This document shows, piece after piece, positions 36,965-64,000 of a stretch of DNA of 64,000 nucleotides. Both the position numbers and the translations under genes were made by a program. The notes under the pieces were generated by a model that was not told where the DNA came from, ran no database searches, and saw only the letters and a list, made by a program, of their open reading frames with translations. Every line of letters starts with the position of its first letter. The first letter of the stretch is position 1. This stretch comes from Escherichia phage VEcB, in sequence record NC_052663.1; one strand, given 5' to 3'.

Positions 36965-37234
36965 CTAAAATGATTCGTTTGTCTCCATAATATATTGCAT
37001 TTCCAAATCTTCCATATGTTTCTTAAATTGGTAAACAATTTCCGATGGGGAAATATCTATATCAAAAAGGTCTTTTGTACCAGAATAAAACCTAATACCA
37101 TCAACAATAAGACCACCATAATAATCCCAATCACTTTCTCGTGAGAAAGGGTTAGGTTCTTCATAATAGTAATCTACTTCAACAATAATAGGTTCTTTAT
37201 TATCTTGTTTATACTCAAAATCAAAAGTGTGCAT
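36965..37234 (-). CDS. hypothetical protein
   Basis: 89 aa acidic ORF. Confidence 0.3.
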   Translation of the reverse strand: MHTFDFEYKQDNKEPIIVEVDYYYEEPNPFSRESDWDYYGGLIVDGIRFYSGTKDLFDIDISPSEIVYQFKKHMEDLEMQYIMETNESF

Positions 37235-38178
37235 TATAAATCCTCGATAAGCAGTCTGCGGGTTTCATTTAAATCATCAATATTGTAGTTATCTCTTACA
37301 TACTTAGCAAGAGCCAATCCTTTCTCAATACAAACATCAGGGGATTCGATTAAGTATTCTACAATATCTTTCCACTCTTTAACTGAATCAGCAAAGAAGA
37401 TTAGATCTTTAAATTCTTCAGTATAATAGTTCTCTCGTGGCGAACAAACGAGTGGCAAACCTTTAGCACCAGCTTCAAGAATTTTTAAATTACTTTTGGC
37501 ATTATTAAAATGATTATTTACTAATGGAGCTATGGAGATTTGATGACCATCGTATGCTTCCATATAACACTCATAAGGACGAATACCTTCATAAACACAA
37601 TCTGGTTGAATATTTTCTTTAATTTGCAACCATTGAGCACTACTTAACTCTTCGTGATCTCTACGAAATCCACATAAAGTTAAATCTTTACCAAAATCAG
37701 GAAGAATTGCTAAATCATGTTTATGTGTTTCACTTCCCGCCCAAACCAGTGGACTTTTAGAATAACGATCTTTAGTAAGAACAAACTGTCCTTCATCAAA
37801 AGGTAGTCCGTTAGGCACAATATGTACATTATCATTGTATTGGCTTAATTCAACCTTTAATGCCGGAGTTGTTGTAGTTACAAGATCACTTCTTTCAAGG
37901 AACCATTTTAGGTCATCTCGGATTTGATTTTCAAATAATCCTTCAAGCATATGCCCTTCAGGAATAATTAAAGAATCATCCAGATCCATTACCAATTTAA
38001 ACCCAAGTTGTTTAAGAGCCAGGAAACCTGGCTTTCCACGTGTTGGTACTCCATTGAACACAAAAATATTATGCTTAGGATTAATGGTCAGTTTGCGTTT
38101 ATATGGCAAAATGATTCTATGAAAATCACATACACTATACTTTTCATTTCCGCGTGTGTCAAGAATAATATTAGGCAT
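37234..38178 (-). CDS. putative glycosyltransferase (GT-B-fold-like), paralog 1
   Basis: 314 aa; C-terminal motif KSNLKILEAGAKGLPLVCSP resembles the sugar-donor-binding signature of GT-B enzymes; clear paralog of the next gene. Confidence 0.5.
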   Translation of the reverse strand: MPNIILDTRGNEKYSVCDFHRIILPYKRKLTINPKHNIFVFNGVPTRGKPGFLALKQLGFKLVMDLDDSLIIPEGHMLEGLFENQIRDDLKWFLERSDLVTTTTPALKVELSQYNDNVHIVPNGLPFDEGQFVLTKDRYSKSPLVWAGSETHKHDLAILPDFGKDLTLCGFRRDHEELSSAQWLQIKENIQPDCVYEGIRPYECYMEAYDGHQISIAPLVNNHFNNAKSNLKILEAGAKGLPLVCSPRENYYTEEFKDLIFFADSVKEWKDIVEYLIESPDVCIEKGLALAKYVRDNYNIDDLNETRRLLIEDL

Positions 38179-38189
38179 ATAGCTCCTTA

Positions 38190-39164
38190 TTAAAGACTTT
38201 CAATAACTTGACGACGCAGTTCATTAGCATCTGCAAGATTATAATTAAGACGAACGTGTTCTGCAAGCATCATACCACGATCTTCTGTGTATCTAGGGTT
38301 CCTCATTAGCTTGACAACTTCATAATGCCAAGATGCTTTAGAGTCTGCATAGATAACAGCCTTTGCATCTACCGGATTGAAGTACGGCAGCACAGGAGAA
38401 CAGATAATAGGAAGACCCTTTGCACCTGCTTCCAAAATCTTCAAATTGCTTTTACAGTTGTTGAAGTCATTATCTACCAGAGGAGCAATTGCAATACTGT
38501 GACCGTCATACACAGACATATACTCACCTAAATTTTTAATAGCTGGTTTATACTGTGCATTTGGAATTTTACGTTTTACTTTAACCCACTCCGCAGTAGT
38601 TAGATACTGACTATTATTTCCAACAGGTGCAGAAGGATACACTTCATACCCTGCAATTGTCAATAGCGTATCATCAAATGTATTAGCTACAAGAGATAAA
38701 TCAGGTTCATGGCTTGCTCCTCCCGCCCAAATAATAGGCGTGTCAGAATAACGGTCTTTTGTCAAAGTAAATTGACCTTCGTCGTAAGGTAGTGCGTTTC
38801 TAATAACGACAACATTACGATTTAAATGACGAATTTTGTAAGCTAGGTATTCTGTTGTTACAGTAACCACATCTGCTAACTTAATCATCTCTACAATAGT
38901 CTTTGAGTGATTAGTAAATACGCCAGCCATATAATGTTCAGGATTAAGCGAATAAAAATCATCTAAATCAACAATAATCTTAACACCTTGTGCCTTCAGG
39001 CGTTTAACTTCGTCTGATCCACGAGAATACACTCTATTAAAAACTAAAACGTCTTTCTTAGGTTTAAACGTATTTCCAGCAAATGGCATTACAATACGAT
39101 GGTAATCACAACCACTGCCTAACTTATTATCACACTTAAGTACAGGAGTATTAGGATTTACCAT
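38190..39164 (-). CDS. putative glycosyltransferase (GT-B-fold-like), paralog 2
   Basis: Start set at ATG 39164 (GAGGAGG RBS; aligns with paralog 1 N-terminus MPNIIL/MVNPNT); shared motifs CD(F/Y)HRI, IAPLV(N/D)N.FNN.KSNLKILEAGAKGLP. Confidence 0.5.
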   Translation of the reverse strand: MVNPNTPVLKCDNKLGSGCDYHRIVMPFAGNTFKPKKDVLVFNRVYSRGSDEVKRLKAQGVKIIVDLDDFYSLNPEHYMAGVFTNHSKTIVEMIKLADVVTVTTEYLAYKIRHLNRNVVVIRNALPYDEGQFTLTKDRYSDTPIIWAGGASHEPDLSLVANTFDDTLLTIAGYEVYPSAPVGNNSQYLTTAEWVKVKRKIPNAQYKPAIKNLGEYMSVYDGHSIAIAPLVDNDFNNCKSNLKILEAGAKGLPIICSPVLPYFNPVDAKAVIYADSKASWHYEVVKLMRNPRYTEDRGMMLAEHVRLNYNLADANELRRQVIESL

Positions 39165-39837
39165 ATTTTTGAGCCTCCTCATAAGAGATAAAAGTTTTAC
39201 CATTGCGAAGATCCTCCAGGGATTGTTTATATTGTTCCCAGTTTACACCAATCCCCTGTTCTTTCTCTTCTTTTGACAGATTCGCAAAAGGTAAAGGATT
39301 GTCTCCAAATACATCATCAGGATGGATAAACGCCATAATTCGAATAGGACATGGTACGCCTTGAATACCTCGGTTCAAACCTGCCAGTGGGACGCGATGA
39401 ATCCACTCTGCATCTTCATACCCATAGCCGTGGGTGTATGAGCGGAAATAGCCAGCTTTCTCAATAACTGCACGGGAATACATACCAAACTGGCACATTC
39501 CTAGCTCCCAAATAACCACTTCCCCTTCAATACCTTTTACTTTATCTTTAAAGTATTCAGGCATACCAAAGAAATCCCAACCATTTTCCTTCGCCTGTTT
39601 TACAAAATATGTTTCCCAACCTTGAACAACAGGATAGCAATCATCATCAAAAATAAACCAGTAATCATATCCTTCATCATAAAACTTTTTCATCAGTTCA
39701 TTACGAGCATATGCAACACCTTTTCGTTCCCGATCATACTGTACAACAAAAGTAGCACTAGGATCAGTCACAAGATAATCTTTAAGAGGACGCTTACCTA
39801 CAGTAATAACACCAACACCAATTTTTGTATTTTCCAA
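39151..39837 (-). CDS. putative glycosyltransferase, GT-A fold (family-2-like)
   Basis: 228 aa; N-terminal GVGVITVGKRP nucleotide-binding start and acidic DDD motif FIFDDDCYP typical of GT-A glycosyltransferases. Confidence 0.55.
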   Translation of the reverse strand: MENTKIGVGVITVGKRPLKDYLVTDPSATFVVQYDRERKGVAYARNELMKKFYDEGYDYWFIFDDDCYPVVQGWETYFVKQAKENGWDFFGMPEYFKDKVKGIEGEVVIWELGMCQFGMYSRAVIEKAGYFRSYTHGYGYEDAEWIHRVPLAGLNRGIQGVPCPIRIMAFIHPDDVFGDNPLPFANLSKEEKEQGIGVNWEQYKQSLEDLRNGKTFISYEEAQKYGKS

Positions 39838-39846
39838 AATAACTCC

Positions 39847-40410
39847 TTAAATAATTTTATTCATGTCTTGACAATGTAAAAGGTGTGAAACAGCTTTTCT
39901 AGGATCATCATTACCTAAACGGTATGTGTGAAATAAATATAACCCACGTAGTAAACCTAGCCTTTTATTGTTAGCGTGCAATGCTTTAGAGAAAATTATA
40001 TCAAACTGTATTGATCTTTCCTCAAAAGGAATTTCATTCCACAGACTCTTACGAAAGAGAAGAAAGAATCCTGCTAAGATAGCATCTGTAGGTACTTCCT
40101 CTATTGAGTTTCCCCATTCTAGATGTGCTCTTTTTGCAATCTCAATGTGGTGTAATATATTCGGATCTTCACTTCTTTCATTATTAAATAATTGATATGT
40201 TGATCCCAATCTGTTACAAGATGCACCAAGAACATCAAAATCAGGATTTGAACGGACAATTGATTCCAGCCAAGCAGGTTGTTCTGGAAGAAGAAACATT
40301 GTATCAATGTCTCTTAGGCAAATCCAACTATCTTCTGGTAAGACACTTATTGTGTCATTGATACCTTTTCCAATATCTCCAGAAAGATAGGGAGTTATGT
40401 GAAATATCAT
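39847..40410 (-). CDS. hypothetical protein, possible GT-A-like glycosyltransferase
   Basis: 187 aa; ICLRDIDTMF DxD-like motif; adjacent to three glycosyltransferase genes. Confidence 0.35.
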   Translation of the reverse strand: MIFHITPYLSGDIGKGINDTISVLPEDSWICLRDIDTMFLLPEQPAWLESIVRSNPDFDVLGASCNRLGSTYQLFNNERSEDPNILHHIEIAKRAHLEWGNSIEEVPTDAILAGFFLLFRKSLWNEIPFEERSIQFDIIFSKALHANNKRLGLLRGLYLFHTYRLGNDDPRKAVSHLLHCQDMNKII

Positions 40411-40662: not shown

Positions 40663-40918
40663 CTACAACCTCCTTAATTGCTACAGCACAGTTTTTGCAG
40701 ATACACTGCCCTTTACCTTTAGAAATCTGGATGTAAGGTTCATTTTCATTTTCGCCCTTACGTGAGTCATATATTACAGAATTGAAGCACACAACGCAAA
40801 TATTTTTTAAGATTGTATACTTATCAACTTTCTTTTTTGTTTTAAAGTTAACCTCAATAACATCAGCCATCAGTGTAACACTCCCAGTATGTTGTTTTGT
40901 GACATAACCATAGAACAT
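40640..40918 (-). CDS. hypothetical Cys-rich small protein (possible zinc ribbon)
   Basis: 92 aa with CVVCF and CICKNC Cys pairs. Confidence 0.3.
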   Translation of the reverse strand: MFYGYVTKQHTGSVTLMADVIEVNFKTKKKVDKYTILKNICVVCFNSVIYDSRKGENENEPYIQISKGKGQCICKNCAVAIKEVVDENHWDQ

Positions 40919-41148
40919 TCAACATTATCGTGACTACGTGAAAAACGTTCCCAAACATCTTCATCGACTCGTAAAGCTATACAAGGATAGACGTTATCAT
41001 TGATCATTTCAATTGAATAAACATCCATATTGTCTTCGTCTTCGATGAACATCATTGCAAACTGTTCTAAATGTTTCCTAATGTAATGTACATCCTCTTC
41101 TGTAAGACCAATAACAAGATAACTTGCAACGATAACGCCATCTTTCAT
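40870..41148 (-). CDS. hypothetical small protein
   Basis: 92 aa ORF. Confidence 0.3.
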   Translation of the reverse strand: MKDGVIVASYLVIGLTEEDVHYIRKHLEQFAMMFIEDEDNMDVYSIEMINDNVYPCIALRVDEDVWERFSRSHDNVECSMVMSQNNILGVLH

Positions 41149-41158
41149 CTATATCTCC

Positions 41159-41668
41159 TTAGCGATAGAATTGATGTTCTTTGTAGCGGTACACTAGAAC
41201 CATATCTTTTTCCCAGTGTGCTCTTATTGTAGATTTTTTAAAGTATAATGCTCCTTTTGTAATATCTAATGCAATTCGTAATTCTGGAAAATGCGTATCG
41301 AGATAAAGCAGACGTTCTGCTATAGCCTTAGCTTCCTTCCACTTATCACGTTCCATAACGTTGAATGTCTTTGTGTAAGAGAATTGTCCTTTTTGAAACA
41401 AAACTTCTTTTATAGTATCAGGGAAATATGAATCTCTAGCCCTATTTAATACTACATTACCAACAGCAGACATACCGCGCTTTCCTTGATTACGACTTTC
41501 TGCATAGATTGCACAAGCTAATAGATTTTCTTTACTATCACGCTTTGTACACTTGTGAACTACTTTAGCAGTTTTTACGTTTGCAGCTTCGGCTTGCGCC
41601 ACGACAGGTGTAAATGTAAAAGCAGTTAAGGATAGTAACGCAATTGCGACAAAGGTTTTTATTGACAA
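41159..41668 (-). CDS. secreted cell wall hydrolase, SleB-like (Hydrolase_2 family)
   Basis: 169 aa; TTG start 5 nt after AGGAGG; N-terminal signal peptide (AIALLSLTAFTFTPVVAQA); SleB-like core LLACAIYAESRNQGKRGMSAVGNVVLNRA...DTIKEVLFQKGQFS. Confidence 0.6.
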   Translation of the reverse strand: MSIKTFVAIALLSLTAFTFTPVVAQAEAANVKTAKVVHKCTKRDSKENLLACAIYAESRNQGKRGMSAVGNVVLNRARDSYFPDTIKEVLFQKGQFSYTKTFNVMERDKWKEAKAIAERLLYLDTHFPELRIALDITKGALYFKKSTIRAHWEKDMVLVYRYKEHQFYR

Positions 41669-41699
41669 ACTTGCCTCCTATTTTGTTAAACGAACTTTT

Positions 41700-41728
41700 A
41701 TTGTAACACAGAAGAGGCTGTTTTGCAA
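41700..41728 (-). promoter_or_regulatory. sigma70-like promoter TTGCAA-N17-TACAAT (minus strand)
   Basis: -35 at 41723..41728 and -10 at 41700..41705 read on the minus strand; about 25 nt upstream of the SleB-like gene RBS. Confidence 0.5.
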
Positions 41729-41731
41729 GTT

Positions 41732-41750
41732 GAGGGGGATTATCCCCCTC
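41732..41750 (-). other. GC-rich hairpin downstream of gene 41761..42363 (possible terminator or processing site)
   Basis: 8 bp stem GAGGGGGA/TCCCCCTC with 3 nt loop; no strong U-tract. Confidence 0.3.
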
Positions 41751-41760
41751 TTACACCCTG

Positions 41761-42363
41761 TTAGATGTTGTAGACCTTCGTATGAGTTACTACACCATCT
41801 TCTACAAAATCAATACGTTCTTGATCCGTAATTAGTGCAGACAATACTTTAAATTTAATTGTTACACGTTCAAAAGCTGGTTGACCATCTTTAAGATAAT
41901 TATGTTCAGTTGTTACTGTCTTGTTTACAAAATCAACTTTTGCTTTACCGTTTTCGCGCAAGTGGAATGTTTTTCCTGCTTTATACACAATTTCAACATT
42001 ACCTTCGAGAGTAATTCCTTCAAAAAGTTCACCCTCTTCTTCATTTTCTTCATTTTTGAACAGACGACGAAACTCTTCCATATCAAGATAAACAACATCT
42101 TCAGAATAACTATCAGTAAGGTATGTCTTACCATCCATTAACCCGAAATATTGCCAGATTGCCGAATAAACATCACTAGTTGATCCAAGGGTATCTCTGA
42201 GTTTAGTTCCACGGATTACTTCATAAACTTCAAAATTGAAACCAGACTGCAAAGCATTAAACAGTACATCACTAACTTCTAAAGCATAATCTTCATTGTT
42301 GTCAATATCCACAAGAAAATTACCGCTACGAATAAGTTTTTGACCTTCTAAAGTAATACCCAT
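41761..42363 (-). CDS. hypothetical protein
   Basis: 200 aa acidic ORF downstream of terD. Confidence 0.35.
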   Translation of the reverse strand: MGITLEGQKLIRSGNFLVDIDNNEDYALEVSDVLFNALQSGFNFEVYEVIRGTKLRDTLGSTSDVYSAIWQYFGLMDGKTYLTDSYSEDVVYLDMEEFRRLFKNEENEEEGELFEGITLEGNVEIVYKAGKTFHLRENGKAKVDFVNKTVTTEHNYLKDGQPAFERVTIKFKVLSALITDQERIDFVEDGVVTHTKVYNI

Positions 42364-42415
42364 TGTTTTCTCCTCTTCTATTTAAAATATGCGCCCCGAA
42401 GGGCGCTATGATTTA

Positions 42416-43012
42416 TTACTCGAACCAATCGTCGCCAGCGCCAAACGCTTTAACTACATCATAAATGTCAAGTCCAGCTTTACCTACACCATATGCTTTC
42501 AGTTTCCATTCGCTATCTTCCCGTACCAGGGAGGCAACGTGGCAAATGGTATTACCTGCAAGTTCTGGAGCCAAGAAGTCAAAATCCAGCAGTTCAACGT
42601 TACGTTCATCATCGAAGATTTTAAGGAAACCTTCGGTAGCGTGACCAAGGCGTTTCTTACCCGTTTCGTCATCAATAGTGATTACGAATGCAATTTCCTG
42701 TGCTTCAGCAGAGATATTACCCAGTGTAACATCAATCTGCTCCATCTGTCCTACACCATCACGAACATCTTCACCTGCAAAAGTAGAACGTTCAGGATCA
42801 AATTTCTGTGCGTAGCATACCAGGTGGCGAGGAGACAACAGTTCCGGCAGACCAGATGCATTGTGTCGGCAAATCAGAGCACTAACATCCAGATCCAGTT
42901 TTTCGTTAGATTTCCAAGAGAATTCCAGACGAATGCGTTTCAGTGCTGGTGCAATCTTTTTCAGAGAAACTTTTTCGCTAGAACCTTTTTTCAGGGAAAT
43001 TTTCTGAGTCAT
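42416..43012 (-). CDS. terD: TerD-family protein
   Basis: 198 aa; N-terminal SLKKGSSEKVSLKK, DLDVSALIC, IAFVITIDD and C-terminal SEWKLKAYGVGKAGL closely parallel conserved TerD blocks; AAGGAG RBS. Confidence 0.8.
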   Translation of the reverse strand: MTQKISLKKGSSEKVSLKKIAPALKRIRLEFSWKSNEKLDLDVSALICRHNASGLPELLSPRHLVCYAQKFDPERSTFAGEDVRDGVGQMEQIDVTLGNISAEAQEIAFVITIDDETGKKRLGHATEGFLKIFDDERNVELLDFDFLAPELAGNTICHVASLVREDSEWKLKAYGVGKAGLDIYDVVKAFGAGDDWFE

Positions 43013-43084: not shown

Positions 43085-43879
43085 TTACGCTTTTGCTCCG
43101 AATTTTTTAACCCACTCGCCAAACTCTTCGGATAGCAGTTTATCGTAAAGTTCTTCGTCAGACAAGGACAAATCTGCAATACCGATAAAGTCAACGTTAT
43201 CGTATTCTTTTGCCAAGTCTTTCAGGAATTTAAAGTTTGCATTACCTACACCAACCATAAACCAGTAAACAGGAGTGTTGCGGTGTTTGTTCAGCAAACT
43301 ACGTACTGCTGAAGTATCCATGTTCTCCCCGTCAGTTTGGAAGAAAATCATTGCAGGAGTACGATCAACTTGTGCATCAGTATCTACAACCTGTTCTACA
43401 ACAGTACGTGTAACTTCTACAAGTTCTTTTTTACCAGTCAGTTTAGCAAGGAAACCCTTAGCCGGAACTTCTTCATACTCAACGACTTCGCGTGTAATAT
43501 TTTTCATAGGTACACTACCGAAGTATGTATCATAGATCTCTTGCATTACTGGAGCATAAGCTGTACCACCATTGATGCAAATGTTAGACATGCAAGAGCC
43601 GACATAATCATCATATACATCAGCCGTTGCAGGAGGCAGTTCAAAAGAAGAACTATTGAAAGCCCACATGTCAATCTGTGCATTATCATCAAACTTCATA
43701 CCAAACGGCAGCAGTTTACCTACAAAATCACTAACAGTGCCATCACGATATAGCTCACACATACTACCCGAAATATCTAAGGCGCTACCGACACGAAGAA
43801 CAACATCGTTAATCTTTTTCTTACGCAGAGATACAGTAAGAGTTTCTTGACGTTTTTTAAGACTGATTTTATTGGACAT
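43085..43879 (-). CDS. vWA-domain protein (TerF/TerY-like)
   Basis: 264 aa; TerD-like N-terminal SLKK..TLTVSLRKK start followed by vWA MIDAS motif DISGSM and downstream Thr/Asp metal-site residues. Confidence 0.55.
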   Translation of the reverse strand: MSNKISLKKRQETLTVSLRKKKINDVVLRVGSALDISGSMCELYRDGTVSDFVGKLLPFGMKFDDNAQIDMWAFNSSSFELPPATADVYDDYVGSCMSNICINGGTAYAPVMQEIYDTYFGSVPMKNITREVVEYEEVPAKGFLAKLTGKKELVEVTRTVVEQVVDTDAQVDRTPAMIFFQTDGENMDTSAVRSLLNKHRNTPVYWFMVGVGNANFKFLKDLAKEYDNVDFIGIADLSLSDEELYDKLLSEEFGEWVKKFGAKA

Positions 43880-44906: not shown

Positions 44907-45139
44907 TACACATTCTCCTCTTTTACCAATTCCATCGTTGAATTGTCAAAACCATCTTTAGAAGAATAGGTATAGACAGAACGTAGTTCTCGCAGGACAG
45001 TGAATACATTAGGATCATCTAACCAAGCATCCTGGAGGAGAACATAACGATCTTCATTGTCATACTGAACAGCAATCATAGAACCAGACAGTTTGTAAAT
45101 TTTAATATTCATAATATATTTCTCCTTAAAGTAGACCAC
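44906..45139 (-). CDS. hypothetical small protein
   Basis: 77 aa ORF. Confidence 0.3.
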   Translation of the reverse strand: MVYFKEKYIMNIKIYKLSGSMIAVQYDNEDRYVLLQDAWLDDPNVFTVLRELRSVYTYSSKDGFDNSTMELVKEENV

Positions 45140-46229
45140 GTTTAACAGTTTGAATCATACCATCTTCAAGAGATTGCACTTCTTGAATGTAATCAATACG
45201 AGCAGCACGGGCTTCAGTGTTGATTCGGTTAGTTTCTTCCAACATTTTAACTAAGTTTTCTTGATCGCGACGTAATGTTTCAATATCCAATACTTGACGA
45301 TTAGCAAGTTTTGTAGCTTCAATTTGGTTTTGTGCAGCCAGATCACTACCCATTGCAATAGCAGCATTAAATTCATTCAGTACATTGTTCTGTGTATCGG
45401 CTGCTTTCTTCTGGCGTAAACTTTCAATATACATAGAAAAGTTTGCAGAGTAAGCAGGAATAACATTATTCACAATATTACGGGCTGATCGCATCAAACT
45501 TGCAGATACTTTCTGCATACTTTGTACACGTGGCCCCATCTGAACACACAGTAAACGCAAGGCTTTCAGGTCTGCAATACGAATTTCAAGCAGATCCATA
45601 GTATCACGAGTACGTTGACGCTCTTCTACTTCATTTTCAGGTAGTGTATTAAGGCGAACTTCTTCTTTTTCATAAGTAGCTGTTAGAAGCTCTATATCCC
45701 TGTTTAAGCTAAGAGCATATTTTGCAATAGCCTCCTCTAAACGTTGCAGATATCGTAAAGAATCTTCTTCTTTTTTCAAATCTGTTTGGAGTGTCTTTAC
45801 CAAACCTTCAATACGGTTATTGATGGTGTCAAATTCTCCAAACAAATCTTCTTTCATACCTAAAACTTTCTTAACTAGTTTACCTAAACCTTTAGATTGT
45901 TTAATAGAGTTAGGATCAAGTTGCTTTGCTTGCTTAATAAGTGCAGTTAAACGTTCACTCATTTCATCTCCCTGAGATGAACGCTGGTGTTTAAGCACTT
46001 CAGCATTAAGGTTACGAAGAGTAAGTCCTGCATCAGCACCAACCTGTTCAATCTCTTCACGAGACATTGGAGGCAGCATTTGTACAGGGCGTGCAACAGC
46101 AGGGGCATATACAGGGCTTGCATCCATAGCACTTGGAGCAAACAAAGACTTACTTTTTTCTGTTGTTGCCGTGAATACACTCATTTCAGACGGTTTGCTT
46201 TTTACGGCACTGATAAAAGGACTGGACAT
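45126..46229 (-). CDS. telA: TelA-like (toxic anion resistance / KlaB family) protein
   Basis: 367 aa, largely alpha-helical coiled-coil protein of TelA size and composition; context with terD and terC; assignment by gestalt, not by a defined motif. Confidence 0.5.
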   Translation of the reverse strand: MSSPFISAVKSKPSEMSVFTATTEKSKSLFAPSAMDASPVYAPAVARPVQMLPPMSREEIEQVGADAGLTLRNLNAEVLKHQRSSQGDEMSERLTALIKQAKQLDPNSIKQSKGLGKLVKKVLGMKEDLFGEFDTINNRIEGLVKTLQTDLKKEEDSLRYLQRLEEAIAKYALSLNRDIELLTATYEKEEVRLNTLPENEVEERQRTRDTMDLLEIRIADLKALRLLCVQMGPRVQSMQKVSASLMRSARNIVNNVIPAYSANFSMYIESLRQKKAADTQNNVLNEFNAAIAMGSDLAAQNQIEATKLANRQVLDIETLRRDQENLVKMLEETNRINTEARAARIDYIQEVQSLEDGMIQTVKRGLL

Positions 46230-47184: not shown

Positions 47185-47775
47185 TTAACGACGACGTGAG
47201 CTACTAAAACTACGTTTCGACGAAGAATAACTTTTCGAAGACTTACTATAAGAACTAATAGGGCTTGAGTAAGACTTACGAGCAGAGTAATCACTATTCA
47301 CTTTTGTTGTTGACGGGCGTGAATACGTTTGTACACTTTGCTGCTTAATTGTGTTTTGTTTAGTGGTTGTATATGTATTTCCTTGTTTATCATAAAAACT
47401 ATGCTTTTGTGTTGTATATGCTTTACTGTTAGTTGTAGGAGCAGCGTTGTTATTAATAATTGTTGTGCTGCTACCACCATCTCTATAACCGCCACCGCCA
47501 CTATTACCACTCAACATATGACCAAGAAGCATACCTGTAGCAAACTCACCTACACCAGAAGAACCACTGCCGCCTCCTTGCACAACAACTGTTGAAGGTT
47601 GTGCAGGTGCTGCTTGAACAACTTGAGGTGCAGGCTGATTTACATATTGTTCATCTACCATCTGATTTGGTGTTTGTTGGTAACGTTGATTTTGTACATT
47701 TTCAGAATCATCACAACCTACCAGCAATGCACTACCTAATACAACTGCAACAATAAAAGATTTAATGTTTTTCAT
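47185..47775 (-). CDS. lipoprotein (Gly- and Ser-rich), probable inner-membrane retention signal
   Basis: Start set at ATG 47775 (MKNIKSF; GAGAGGG RBS); signal peptide with lipobox LLVGC, Asp-Asp at +2/+3; Gly-rich and Ser/Tyr-rich C-terminal low complexity. Confidence 0.5.
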   Translation of the reverse strand: MKNIKSFIVAVVLGSALLVGCDDSENVQNQRYQQTPNQMVDEQYVNQPAPQVVQAAPAQPSTVVVQGGGSGSSGVGEFATGMLLGHMLSGNSGGGGYRDGGSSTTIINNNAAPTTNSKAYTTQKHSFYDKQGNTYTTTKQNTIKQQSVQTYSRPSTTKVNSDYSARKSYSSPISSYSKSSKSYSSSKRSFSSSRRR

Positions 47776-47968
47776 TTGTAACCCTCTCATTTAAAGTCTC
47801 AACACAATTTTTAAAATCCCTAGAGAAACAATACATCTGTTCTCCGTTCCTGTTGATAGTAATTGTATGGTTATCAATATATGTTGTCAAGATAAAAATC
47901 AAACAAAACAACCCTAGAGCAAAACAAATATTTTCAAACAGAATCCAAAGAACACGTAAAACCACCAT
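47762..47968 (-). CDS. hypothetical small membrane protein
   Basis: 68 aa with one hydrophobic helix. Confidence 0.3.
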   Translation of the reverse strand: MVVLRVLWILFENICFALGLFCLIFILTTYIDNHTITINRNGEQMYCFSRDFKNCVETLNERVTNEKH

Positions 47969-48019: not shown

Positions 48020-48985
48020 CTAGTCTTCTTTTTCAGGGAAGATTAAACTTGCAATAACACCCAGCCCAAGAGTACCTAACACAATATACATACTGATCGT
48101 CGGATCAATGTGTGCTGGCAGGAAACTCACTTTTGCGTGCAGAGTTTCTGCAAACGGGTGATACATCAGTTTTACACCCACAAATACCAGGACTACGATA
48201 ACTGCTTTCTCCAGATGAACCAAATACTTCAGTGCAACACTAAGAACAAAGAACAGAGCACGTAAACCTAAGATTGCACAGAGCATCGAAGAGAACACCA
48301 GCAGAGGTTCTTGTGTCACCGCAATTACCGCTGGAACAGAGTCTACTGCAAAGATTACGTCAACCATTTCCATTACAAACACACAAACCAGAGCCGGAGT
48401 TGCTACACGAACACCATTTTTGATTGTGAAGAACTTCTCACCATCCATCTGATCAGATACAGGGAACAGCTTACGAACAATGCGAGTAGCCCAGTGTTTA
48501 GAGTAATCAACTTCTGCATCATTATCCCCAGCGAATACCATTTTAGCCGCACAGAAAAGGATGACAGCACCGAAGAAGATATTAACATACCAGCCCAAAC
48601 TCAACAAGTAAGTGCCTACTGCTACAAACACACCTCGGAAGACAATCGCACCTGCAATACCCCAAAGTAGAATTTTGTGCTGCAAGTGTGTGCTTTTAAT
48701 ACCAAAACTTGCGAAGACTGCCACAAATACTACTAAGTTATCTACAGAAAGAGATTTCTCCAACACATACCCACTCAAGAACAAGCTCGCAAAATCAGCA
48801 CCGTGTTGGAAGTATACAAAACCATAGTAGGCTAATGATACCCCAATCCAGAAAATTGACCAGCCAATTGCAGATTTAAATGAAATTTCTTTGTTTTCTC
48901 TGTGTCCAAAGAAGTCAATACAAATCGACAAGACTAAAATACCCACTAAAACAACCACATCAATAATTGGGAAACCCAGTTGCAT
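48020..48985 (-). CDS. terC: TerC-family integral membrane protein
   Basis: 321 aa polytopic membrane protein with the diagnostic EKSLSVDNLVVF motif; GAGGAG RBS. Confidence 0.8.
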   Translation of the reverse strand: MQLGFPIIDVVVLVGILVLSICIDFFGHRENKEISFKSAIGWSIFWIGVSLAYYGFVYFQHGADFASLFLSGYVLEKSLSVDNLVVFVAVFASFGIKSTHLQHKILLWGIAGAIVFRGVFVAVGTYLLSLGWYVNIFFGAVILFCAAKMVFAGDNDAEVDYSKHWATRIVRKLFPVSDQMDGEKFFTIKNGVRVATPALVCVFVMEMVDVIFAVDSVPAVIAVTQEPLLVFSSMLCAILGLRALFFVLSVALKYLVHLEKAVIVVLVFVGVKLMYHPFAETLHAKVSFLPAHIDPTISMYIVLGTLGLGVIASLIFPEKED

Positions 48986-49325: not shown

Positions 49326-49532
49326 TTATTTGTTAGATTGAAAGATACCACGAAGTACCGCAAGAATGAACGTCACACAGACTACACTCCAAAACGTTAC
49401 AGGAACATGATGCCAGTCTAAACCGATAATGTCAATCATATAGTTGTATGCTAAAAGCAGTAGCCAACTAGGGATTAACACAATCAAGAACACAACAATA
49501 AAACAACCTAATACTGCTAAAACACCTGCCAT
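49326..49532 (-). CDS. hypothetical small membrane protein
   Basis: 68 aa, almost entirely hydrophobic (two TM segments). Confidence 0.3.
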   Translation of the reverse strand: MAGVLAVLGCFIVVFLIVLIPSWLLLLAYNYMIDIIGLDWHHVPVTFWSVVCVTFILAVLRGIFQSNK

Positions 49533-63598: not shown

Positions 63599-63961
63599 TT
63601 ATTTCTCCTTATCATCATATTCTAGGAACATATCTGCACGATATGCTTTACGCTCTTCAAACTTAGCAGGATCTACAACAATAAGCAATACAAGGTTAAC
63701 ATCTAAATACTTTTTAACAAATAGAAATAAATCTTTTCCACAGTTAAAACCTACACCAGTATAGGCATCCCCATATTGATCTACTGATTTAATCTTCTTA
63801 CTAACCGTACATTCTATGCTATTCTTTTCTTCTTGGTATAAGGCTTTTCCACCCCAATATGTAAAGAATTTAGTACCGTCAGCACCAAGTTTAAAACCTT
63901 CTGTTGCATGTCCAGCAAATGAAAGTAAACATAACCAAGTAATCATCAGGTACTTTAGCAT
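63599..63961 (-). CDS. hypothetical secreted protein
   Basis: Start set at ATG 63961; N-terminal signal-peptide-like segment MLKYLMITWLCLLSFAGHA. Confidence 0.3.
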   Translation of the reverse strand: MLKYLMITWLCLLSFAGHATEGFKLGADGTKFFTYWGGKALYQEEKNSIECTVSKKIKSVDQYGDAYTGVGFNCGKDLFLFVKKYLDVNLVLLIVVDPAKFEERKAYRADMFLEYDDKEK

Positions 63962-64000
63962 TTTAACCACCCAATTGCAAATGTTTAGAAAGAACAATAT

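Follow-up and report, generated by a model that had tools for sequence, protein, structure and literature searches.

The stretch of DNA considered here (the window) comprises 64,000 nucleotides of Escherichia phage VEcB (NC_052663.1). On its minus strand, at 41159-41668, lies a gene encoding a SleB-like (Hydrolase_2) wall hydrolase of 169 aa, with a TTG start and a TAA stop codon. A 3-kb query around this gene was 99.8% identical to Escherichia phage vB_EcoM_ESCO9 and 98.5-99.3% identical to many other Justusliebigvirus coliphages (Stephanstirmvirinae; phi92/phAPEC8-like), and subtracting about 6310 from a coordinate of phage alia (NC_052655) gives that in the window. The same query also matched five records labelled as Campylobacter phages, a host label that looks doubtful. 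The window carries tail genes on the plus strand, followed by a minus-strand arm containing the genes for DNA polymerase, primase/helicase and ribonucleotide reductases, together with many small genes. It is in this replication/nucleotide-metabolism arm, outside the structural module, that the hydrolase gene is found, with TerD, an ORF of unlabelled function, small soluble ORFs and glycosyltransferases as its neighbours.

On the 5' side of the gene, the minus strand harbours a Ter-type cluster made up of TerD (42416-43012), a vWA-TerF-like gene (43085-43879), TelA (45126-46229) and TerC (48020-48985); a 201-aa ORF with a lipoprotein-type signal (LLVGC) lies at 47185-47790 on the same strand. 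Two divergent metagenomic relatives, L012 and L013, have the same order, vWA-TerF / TerD and then the SleB-like gene, and L013 also has TelA. Between TerD and the hydrolase gene, a 200-aa ORF (41761-42363, minus strand) matched only a PHROG of unlabelled function; at the nucleotide level this ORF is about 35-45% identical to its Phapecoctavirus counterpart, it is missing from L013, and from these comparisons it looks like a hypervariable slot between conserved flanks. It is separated from TerD by a perfect G+C hairpin (GCGCCCTTCGGGGCGC, 42391-42406) with T-runs on both strands, which has the appearance of a bidirectional terminator-like site. Another G+C-rich hairpin, GAGGGGGA-TAA-TCCCCCTC (41732-41750, minus strand), is placed between the upstream gene and the hydrolase promoter, where the 47 nt 5' of the -35 element fold at -20.4 kcal/mol. 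Relatives keep a hairpin of different sequence at this point, which in KP2025 is followed by TTTT. We considered an intrinsic terminator here and rejected it: the hairpin is real, but in VEcB it has no U-tract, and the terminator scan made no call.

The TTG codon is preceded, at a distance of 5 nt, by the Shine-Dalgarno sequence AGGAGG (41674-41679, minus strand) and, further 5', by a sigma-70-type promoter, TTGCAA-N17-TACAAT with a TGn extended -10 (41700-41728, minus strand), identified by scan and conservation. The -35 hexamer TTGCAA occupies 41728-41723, the -10 hexamer TACAAT 41705-41700 and the TG 41708-41707. The two hexamers agree with the consensus at 9 of 12 positions; since promoter matches of this quality are not enriched in the region (46 observed, 39.3 expected from shuffled sequence), a consensus match by itself proves little. 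The composite TTGCAA-N14-TGnTAnnnT is instead rare, occurring three times in the window against 0.10 expected. A second exact copy of it lies near the window edge, at 63952-63980 on the minus strand, probably within a coding region. The stronger evidence for the promoter is its conservation, rather than the match to the consensus: the -35 TTGCAA, the 17-nt spacing, TGnTAnnnT, AGGAGGC and the TTG start are invariant across five lineages, the proteins of which are only 61-75% identical. We take the predicted promoter, the ribosome-binding site and the unusual TTG start as real. The earlier note on this DNA, made from the letters alone, was right about the TTG start and its AGGAGG, both recovered from the ORF list and the sequence, and its 'early region' is correct as a position in the minus-strand arm; the promoter that it called 'near-consensus' is present and conserved, but for 9 of 12 positions the term was generous.

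The following gene (40870-41148, minus strand), delimited from the sequence, the ORFs and the alia annotation, encodes a 92-aa protein of PHROG 16257, a function-unlabelled family. Its ribosome-binding site overlaps the stop codon of the hydrolase gene, and the two genes are therefore presumed to be co-transcribed. Further 3', on the same strand, come two small ORFs and then four putative glycosyltransferase genes; because of this arrangement, together with the stop/RBS overlap, the hydrolase gene appears to head an operon. The four glycosyltransferase ORFs (37234-40410, minus strand) are annotated as such in alia: that at 37234-38178 passes the Pfam Glyco_trans_1_2 threshold, that at 39151-39837 has a sub-threshold match to a TET-associated glycosyltransferase family (22.1 bits, threshold 27.5), and the other two gave no Pfam match. 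Genes for dTDP-rhamnose synthesis occur elsewhere in the relatives' genomes.

In comparison with Phapecoctavirus, the promoter, the leader and the first ~45-57 codons (41534-41728, minus strand) form an island of 90-95% nucleotide identity, against about 70% in the rest of the hydrolase gene and about 40% in the upstream gene. The dS was 0.17-0.32 for codons 1-28 and 1.8-2.2 for the rest of the gene, and the codons at the conserved residues 12-57 are almost all identical in four of the five lineages. A conserved RNA element was rejected as the cause of the island: the single-sequence fold gave z = -0.10, Rfam gave no match and RNAalifold returned a positive covariation term, with compensatory pairs limited to 3 of 37. 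Two origins may be envisaged, namely recombination at the edge of the variable gene slot, or a synonymous constraint tied to TTG-initiated translation or to export.

The encoded protein matched Pfam Hydrolase_2 (PF07486) with E=6.5e-20 and 72.1 bits (gathering cut-off 27) over profile positions 2-100 of 100; no second Pfam domain was found in its 169 aa, and it falls in PHROG 938, a family labelled 'endolysin'. The SleB-type catalytic domain spans residues 48-168 (41165-41527, minus strand), with a Pfam envelope of 61-168 and a PDB sequence match that begins at residue 48. In the latter search (phmmer) only the Bacillus SleB catalytic domains 4F55 and 4FET were retrieved, and the same two structures were the only ones matched by Foldseek (TM 0.72-0.73, target-normalised; E about 1e-4). 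The AlphaFold model used has a mean pLDDT of 80, with block means of 79-97 over residues 31-168, ~60 at residues 91-100, and values below 50 for residues 1-31, which are predicted to be disordered.

In the phmmer alignment with 4F55 and 4FET, Glu57 (codon GAA, 41498-41500, minus strand) falls on the Glu of the SleB motif YGESRGE, which by chain numbering is Glu157 of B. cereus SleB and which we take to be the catalytic residue. Glu57 is invariant in all the aligned relatives, as are about 30 further positions. A catalytic Glu is needed by SleB (PMC12331253). Two cysteines are conserved together, Cys40 (codon TGT, 41549-41551, minus strand) and Cys52 (41513-41515), the latter five residues before Glu57; both are invariant among 20 Stephanstirmvirinae relatives and in the rV5-like phage naam, and the motif (V/Y)H(K/T)C...LAC is common to the nearest representative clusters. 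We infer from this pattern that Cys40 and Cys52 may form a disulfide in the periplasm. The dN/dS against the Phapecoctavirus orthologues was 0.14-0.16, and the predicted mature enzyme is basic, with a mass of 16.8 kDa and a pI of 9.7. As judged from sequence and modelled fold, the protein is a small single-domain peptidoglycan hydrolase of the SleB/CwlJ type and, as regards the bond that it would cleave, most likely a lytic transglycosylase. Assignment to SleB proper, the spore cortex-lytic enzyme, was rejected: the SleB equivalog TIGR02869 scored 51.9 bits against a cut-off of 236.5, and only its catalytic half was matched (profile positions 81-199 of 201). A role in spore germination was likewise discarded, as the gene belongs to a virulent coliphage.

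Codons 1-26 (41591-41668, minus strand) encode a predicted Sec-type signal peptide, recognised by hydropathy and by the -3/-1 rule. It is composed of the n-region MSIK, a 15-residue hydrophobic core (residues 5-19), P20 and the c-region VVAQA/EA (the slash marks a predicted cut); the three regions in order read MSIK, TFVAIALLSLTAFTF and TPVVAQA/EA. By the same rule, AXA-type signal-peptidase sites follow residues 24, 26 and 28, and cleavage is predicted after A24 or A26. Twenty uncharged residues lie between K4 and Q25, about 45% of which are Ala/Ser/Thr, together with P20 and the AXA sites. With its n/h/c regions and the small residues at -3 and -1, the segment has the make-up of a type I Sec signal peptide; export as a lipoprotein or through Tat was rejected, given that there is no lipobox Cys (the first Cys is residue 40) and no twin-arginine. 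The layout is kept in the 20 Stephanstirmvirinae relatives and in naam (MKIKIFAIILSALLSLPVVA/AP), and the N-terminus of the T5-like AKFV33 orf081 reads MKAALLLVAALTFSFSSQA/SHD. In both the rV5-like and the T5-like proteins the hydrophobic core, of 11-13 residues, is too short to serve as a membrane anchor. We infer that the VEcB hydrolase would be exported and its signal peptide cleaved. The homologue of the Certrevirus CB7 has been described as carrying a signal peptide and as toxic in E. coli on expression (PMC7344957).

The domain is widespread. By tblastn, Hydrolase_2 was found in 1225 phage records, and 26,077 family members came out of 1.84 billion representative proteins searched with a profile. 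A hydrophobic N-terminus is present in 138 of the 151 best of these 26,077, hence export or anchoring appears to be the rule for the domain. Moreover, the predicted signal-peptide form, encoded among non-structural genes, recurs in several large virulent phage groups that have another lysin. The gene itself is labelled in GenBank either 'putative cell wall hydrolase (SleB)' or 'endolysin'. According to its genome announcement, the Phapecoctavirus iGC_PHA_EC001 has two lytic proteins, of which one carries PF00959 and the other PF07486 (PMC10793346), and the homologue is described in papers on Certrevirus (CB7, PMC7344957) and Septuagintavirus, the CB7 paper also noting its signal peptide. The observation of a hydrolase at this locus is thus correct but already known: the gene is annotated, has been published for the phage group and is a conserved accessory gene.

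A stand-alone lysozyme is encoded elsewhere in the close relatives. The alia gp186 is a protein of 166 aa with a Phage_lysozyme domain (GH24) and no export signal, encoded outside the window about 65 kb away, and its sequence resembles that of T4 lysozyme; the syntenic gene of ESCO9, ESCO9_00021, has the same size and is annotated 'baseplate hub', and the BME3 copy of this T4 e-type lysozyme is 98.2% identical to that of alia. At an identity of at least 95%, the SleB-like gene was found in 53 records and the T4 e-type lysozyme in 54, and at 60-90% identity in 77 and 77 phage-database records, figures in which the counts were matched and not the individual records. The records MG065639, MG065645, MG065656 and MG065689, entered as 'Campylobacter phage' with C. 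jejuni as host, encode a T4 e-type lysozyme with 97.6% identity to the coliphage protein. The T4 e-type lysozyme is likely to be the principal endolysin of the phage group; because it has no export signal, it would need a holin. In the rV5 genome paper, the Phage_lysozyme protein Gp89 is named as the lysin (PMC3606486).

Directly 5' of the large terminase gene of alia, we found a Rz-like i-spanin with one membrane segment, overlapped in another frame by an unannotated lipoprotein ORF (MRKHLLALCLVLALMMTGC...; L004 24994-25700) that is probably, by its signal and position, the o-spanin. Kongari et al., in their survey of spanins, enter phAPEC8 and phi92 as a spanin family pair (PMC6139136). Beside the alia spanins no holin was found, the small proteins 5' of Rz being without membrane segments; in the window, the membrane ORFs gave no holin family match, and the hydrolase operon encodes no membrane protein. 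The small ORF with two transmembrane segments nearest to it (49326-49532, minus strand) is 7.7 kb off; it encodes 68 aa, with two predicted membrane segments in a holin-like topology, and matched only a PHROG of unlabelled function. The phage group thus has its endolysin and spanin parts elsewhere, and the SleB-like enzyme is probably an extra.

These results bear on the earlier note in several ways. The secreted SleB/Hydrolase_2 enzyme that it proposed, behind a host-type promoter, is supported by the Pfam score, by a fold match to SleB only and by the conserved signal peptide and promoter, and no holin-endolysin cassette adjoins the gene, as it had stated, the neighbours being soluble ORFs, glycosyltransferases and TerD. 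It had left the choice between a signal-peptide endolysin and a periplasmic wall-remodelling enzyme: the endolysin half is weakened by the separate lysozyme of the relatives, and an auxiliary periplasmic hydrolase is the better reading. A separate canonical endolysin elsewhere in the genome, one half of what the note had named as speaking against its claim, is present in alia and ESCO9 as the T4 e-type GH24 lysozyme; of the holin/spanin cassette that it had proposed to look for, the relatives yielded the spanin pair, beside the terminase in alia, but not the holin.

The following course of events can be proposed. Host sigma-70 RNA polymerase would transcribe the hydrolase gene from the conserved promoter. 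Standing at the head of an operon within the replication arm, it would be expressed before the late genes, a timing suggested by position, and the TTG start may keep the amount of enzyme low. The protein would be exported by Sec, cut by signal peptidase I after A24 or A26 and folded in the periplasm, where C40 and C52 would probably be joined by a disulfide, and from the periplasmic side it could cleave glycan strands without any holin. It would thereby act as a second, auxiliary murein hydrolase, conditioning the wall or helping to break it, with the T4 e-type lysozyme and the Rz/Rz1 spanins as the principal, holin-dependent lysis set. With moderate confidence, we favour this auxiliary periplasmic role alongside the T4 e-type lysozyme. 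Several points weigh against it: many records and the PHROG database say 'endolysin'; a free periplasmic hydrolase made early must be tolerated for most of the cycle, and no mechanism of control was found; and no holin was found for the T4 e-type lysozyme either. In the literature on the hydrolase and its close relatives we found no experiment on activity, export, cleavage or timing; the literature search on T5.083 gave no functional data, and the gene goes unmentioned in the main text and one supplementary file of the T5 and SUSP1 screens by CRISPRi-ART.

The enzyme could instead serve an early purpose other than lysis, such as local remodelling of the sacculus in support of infection, a change of the wall that hinders superinfecting phages or altered turnover of muropeptides, any contribution to final lysis being incidental. 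This we regard as unlikely, but it finds backing in the distribution of the family, since signal-peptide forms lie among replication or non-structural genes where another endolysin is present or reported (Stephanstirmvirinae, rV5-like and T5-like phages), in the overlap of the rV5-like gene with the start of rIIA-rIIB, in the conserved synteny with TelA / vWA-TerF / TerD and in the invariant TTG start, which may keep expression low. On the other hand, a specific partner or target was not found, the neighbours vary by lineage (glycosyltransferases here, rII in rV5-like phages, a helicase in Certrevirus), and such a role is hard to tell from that of an auxiliary lysin without experiments. A broader version of the idea, in which the signal-peptide Hydrolase_2 enzymes of rV5-like, phi92/phAPEC8-like and T5-like phages would constitute a distinct class secreted early for purposes other than lysis, beside a separate endolysin, is put forward tentatively, and we doubt it on present evidence.

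That the hydrolase is itself the principal endolysin, of the signal-peptide or SAR type, accumulating in the periplasm until depolarisation of the membrane unleashes it, with the T4 e-type lysozyme doing something else, seems to us improbable. The label 'endolysin' of PHROG 938 and of many GenBank entries would agree with it, as would the toxicity of the Certrevirus homologue in E. coli (PMC7344957), the small protein with two transmembrane domains encoded directly after the gene in Certreviruses and the JG004 homologue, the N-terminus of which is a membrane segment and not a cleavable peptide. Hydrolase_2 can in fact serve as main lysin, because the phi-A318 copy occupies the usual endolysin position. 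Against this reading stand the complete, separate T4 e-type lysozyme encoded in this phage group, for which the record counts match, the conserved host-type promoter and the location in the replication arm, the downstream genes, here devoid of membrane segments, and the Pro and AXA sites, which, together with the orthologue cores of 11-13 residues, fit a cleaved peptide and not a releasable anchor. The canonical, holin-dependent kind of endolysin was rejected: with its conserved signal peptide the hydrolase is not a signal-free cytoplasmic protein, no holin or spanin genes are linked to it, its promoter is of the host type and the spanins are elsewhere. A virion-associated lysin was rejected too, the hydrolase being a stand-alone protein with a signal peptide, encoded outside the structural module; the paper on the phi92 virion structure does not mention a hydrolase or lysozyme. 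Finally, a catalytically inactive wall-binding protein, or a gene in decay, for which we found nothing in favour, is hardly credible in the light of the invariant catalytic Glu and about 30 further positions, a dN/dS of about 0.15 and a catalytic domain predicted with high confidence.

The auxiliary reading has some practical consequences. It corrects an annotation habit, as many of these genes are labelled 'endolysin' in genomes that also encode spanins and a classical T4-type lysozyme. If an early exported hydrolase truly has a role of its own, there would be an extra step of lysis or infection in large groups of coliphages used in phage therapy. In addition, a mature enzyme predicted to be basic (pI 9.7) and holin-independent would be a candidate enzybiotic.

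Among known systems, the Bacillus SleB (4F55, 4FET), a germination-specific lytic transglycosylase, shares with the phage protein the PF07486 domain, the fold and the motif of the catalytic Glu. The phage protein differs in that it has no N-terminal PG_binding_1 domain, with an identity of about 20-23% in the fold alignment; it has a signal peptide and a Cys pair, Cys52 aligning to an Ala in SleB, and the phage host has neither a spore cortex nor the muramic-delta-lactam substrate. Like the SleB-like protein, the T4 e-type lysozyme (alia gp186, ESCO9_00021) is a small murein hydrolase whose gene lies apart from the structural ones, but it is a GH24 enzyme and has no export signal. The SAR endolysins (P1 Lyz, phage 21 R) are exported by Sec with no need of a holin, as is predicted for the hydrolase, and resemble it in a fairly Ala/Ser/Thr-rich hydrophobic N-terminal segment and in a Cys near the catalytic residue; by contrast, their catalytic fold is another, whereas here a Pro precedes the AXA sites, the cores of the orthologues are too short to span the membrane, and there is no adjacent pinholin and no lysis cassette.

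Other phages carry the domain in different settings. A Rhizobium phage has Hydrolase_2 within a very large protein, the gene of which comes directly after that of tail tubular protein B. In the small podovirus phi-A318, a 129-aa version that has no signal is encoded at the end of the genome, the usual place of lysis genes. The homologue of the Pakpunavirus JG004 has an N-terminal membrane segment in place of the cleavable peptide. The T5-like homologues of T5.083 (AKFV33 orf081) are, as here, single Hydrolase_2 domains, about 150 aa long, with an evident cleavable signal peptide, and the AKFV33 gene has a T5-type promoter in front of it and tRNA and other non-structural genes around it; the identity is only about 35% over the catalytic domain, and the Cys positions differ. 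T5 has a different, known endolysin (PMC7344957).

The SleB-like proteins of Vequintavirinae (CB7_83, phiTE_033, naam_76) align over nearly their full length, with 39-41% identity in rV5-like phages and 34.5% in phiTE, and a SleB-like hydrolase has also been reported for PVP-SE1, of the same subfamily (PMC12210895). In Certrevirus the gene is followed by that of a 65-aa membrane protein and then by a helicase, neighbours that differ from those of VEcB; two TM domains were predicted for the downstream protein in the CB7 paper (PMC7344957), and one membrane segment was found for phiTE_032 in our cruder scan. In rV5-like phages the hydrolase gene overlaps the start of rIIA-rIIB, whereas here small ORFs and glycosyltransferases adjoin it, and the naam gene comes directly after a terminator and has no promoter of its own, unlike the VEcB gene. 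The rV5-like naam enzyme has in common with that described here a signal peptide, the HxC...LAC Cys pair, the catalytic Glu, a place in a non-structural arm and another lysin in the same genome.
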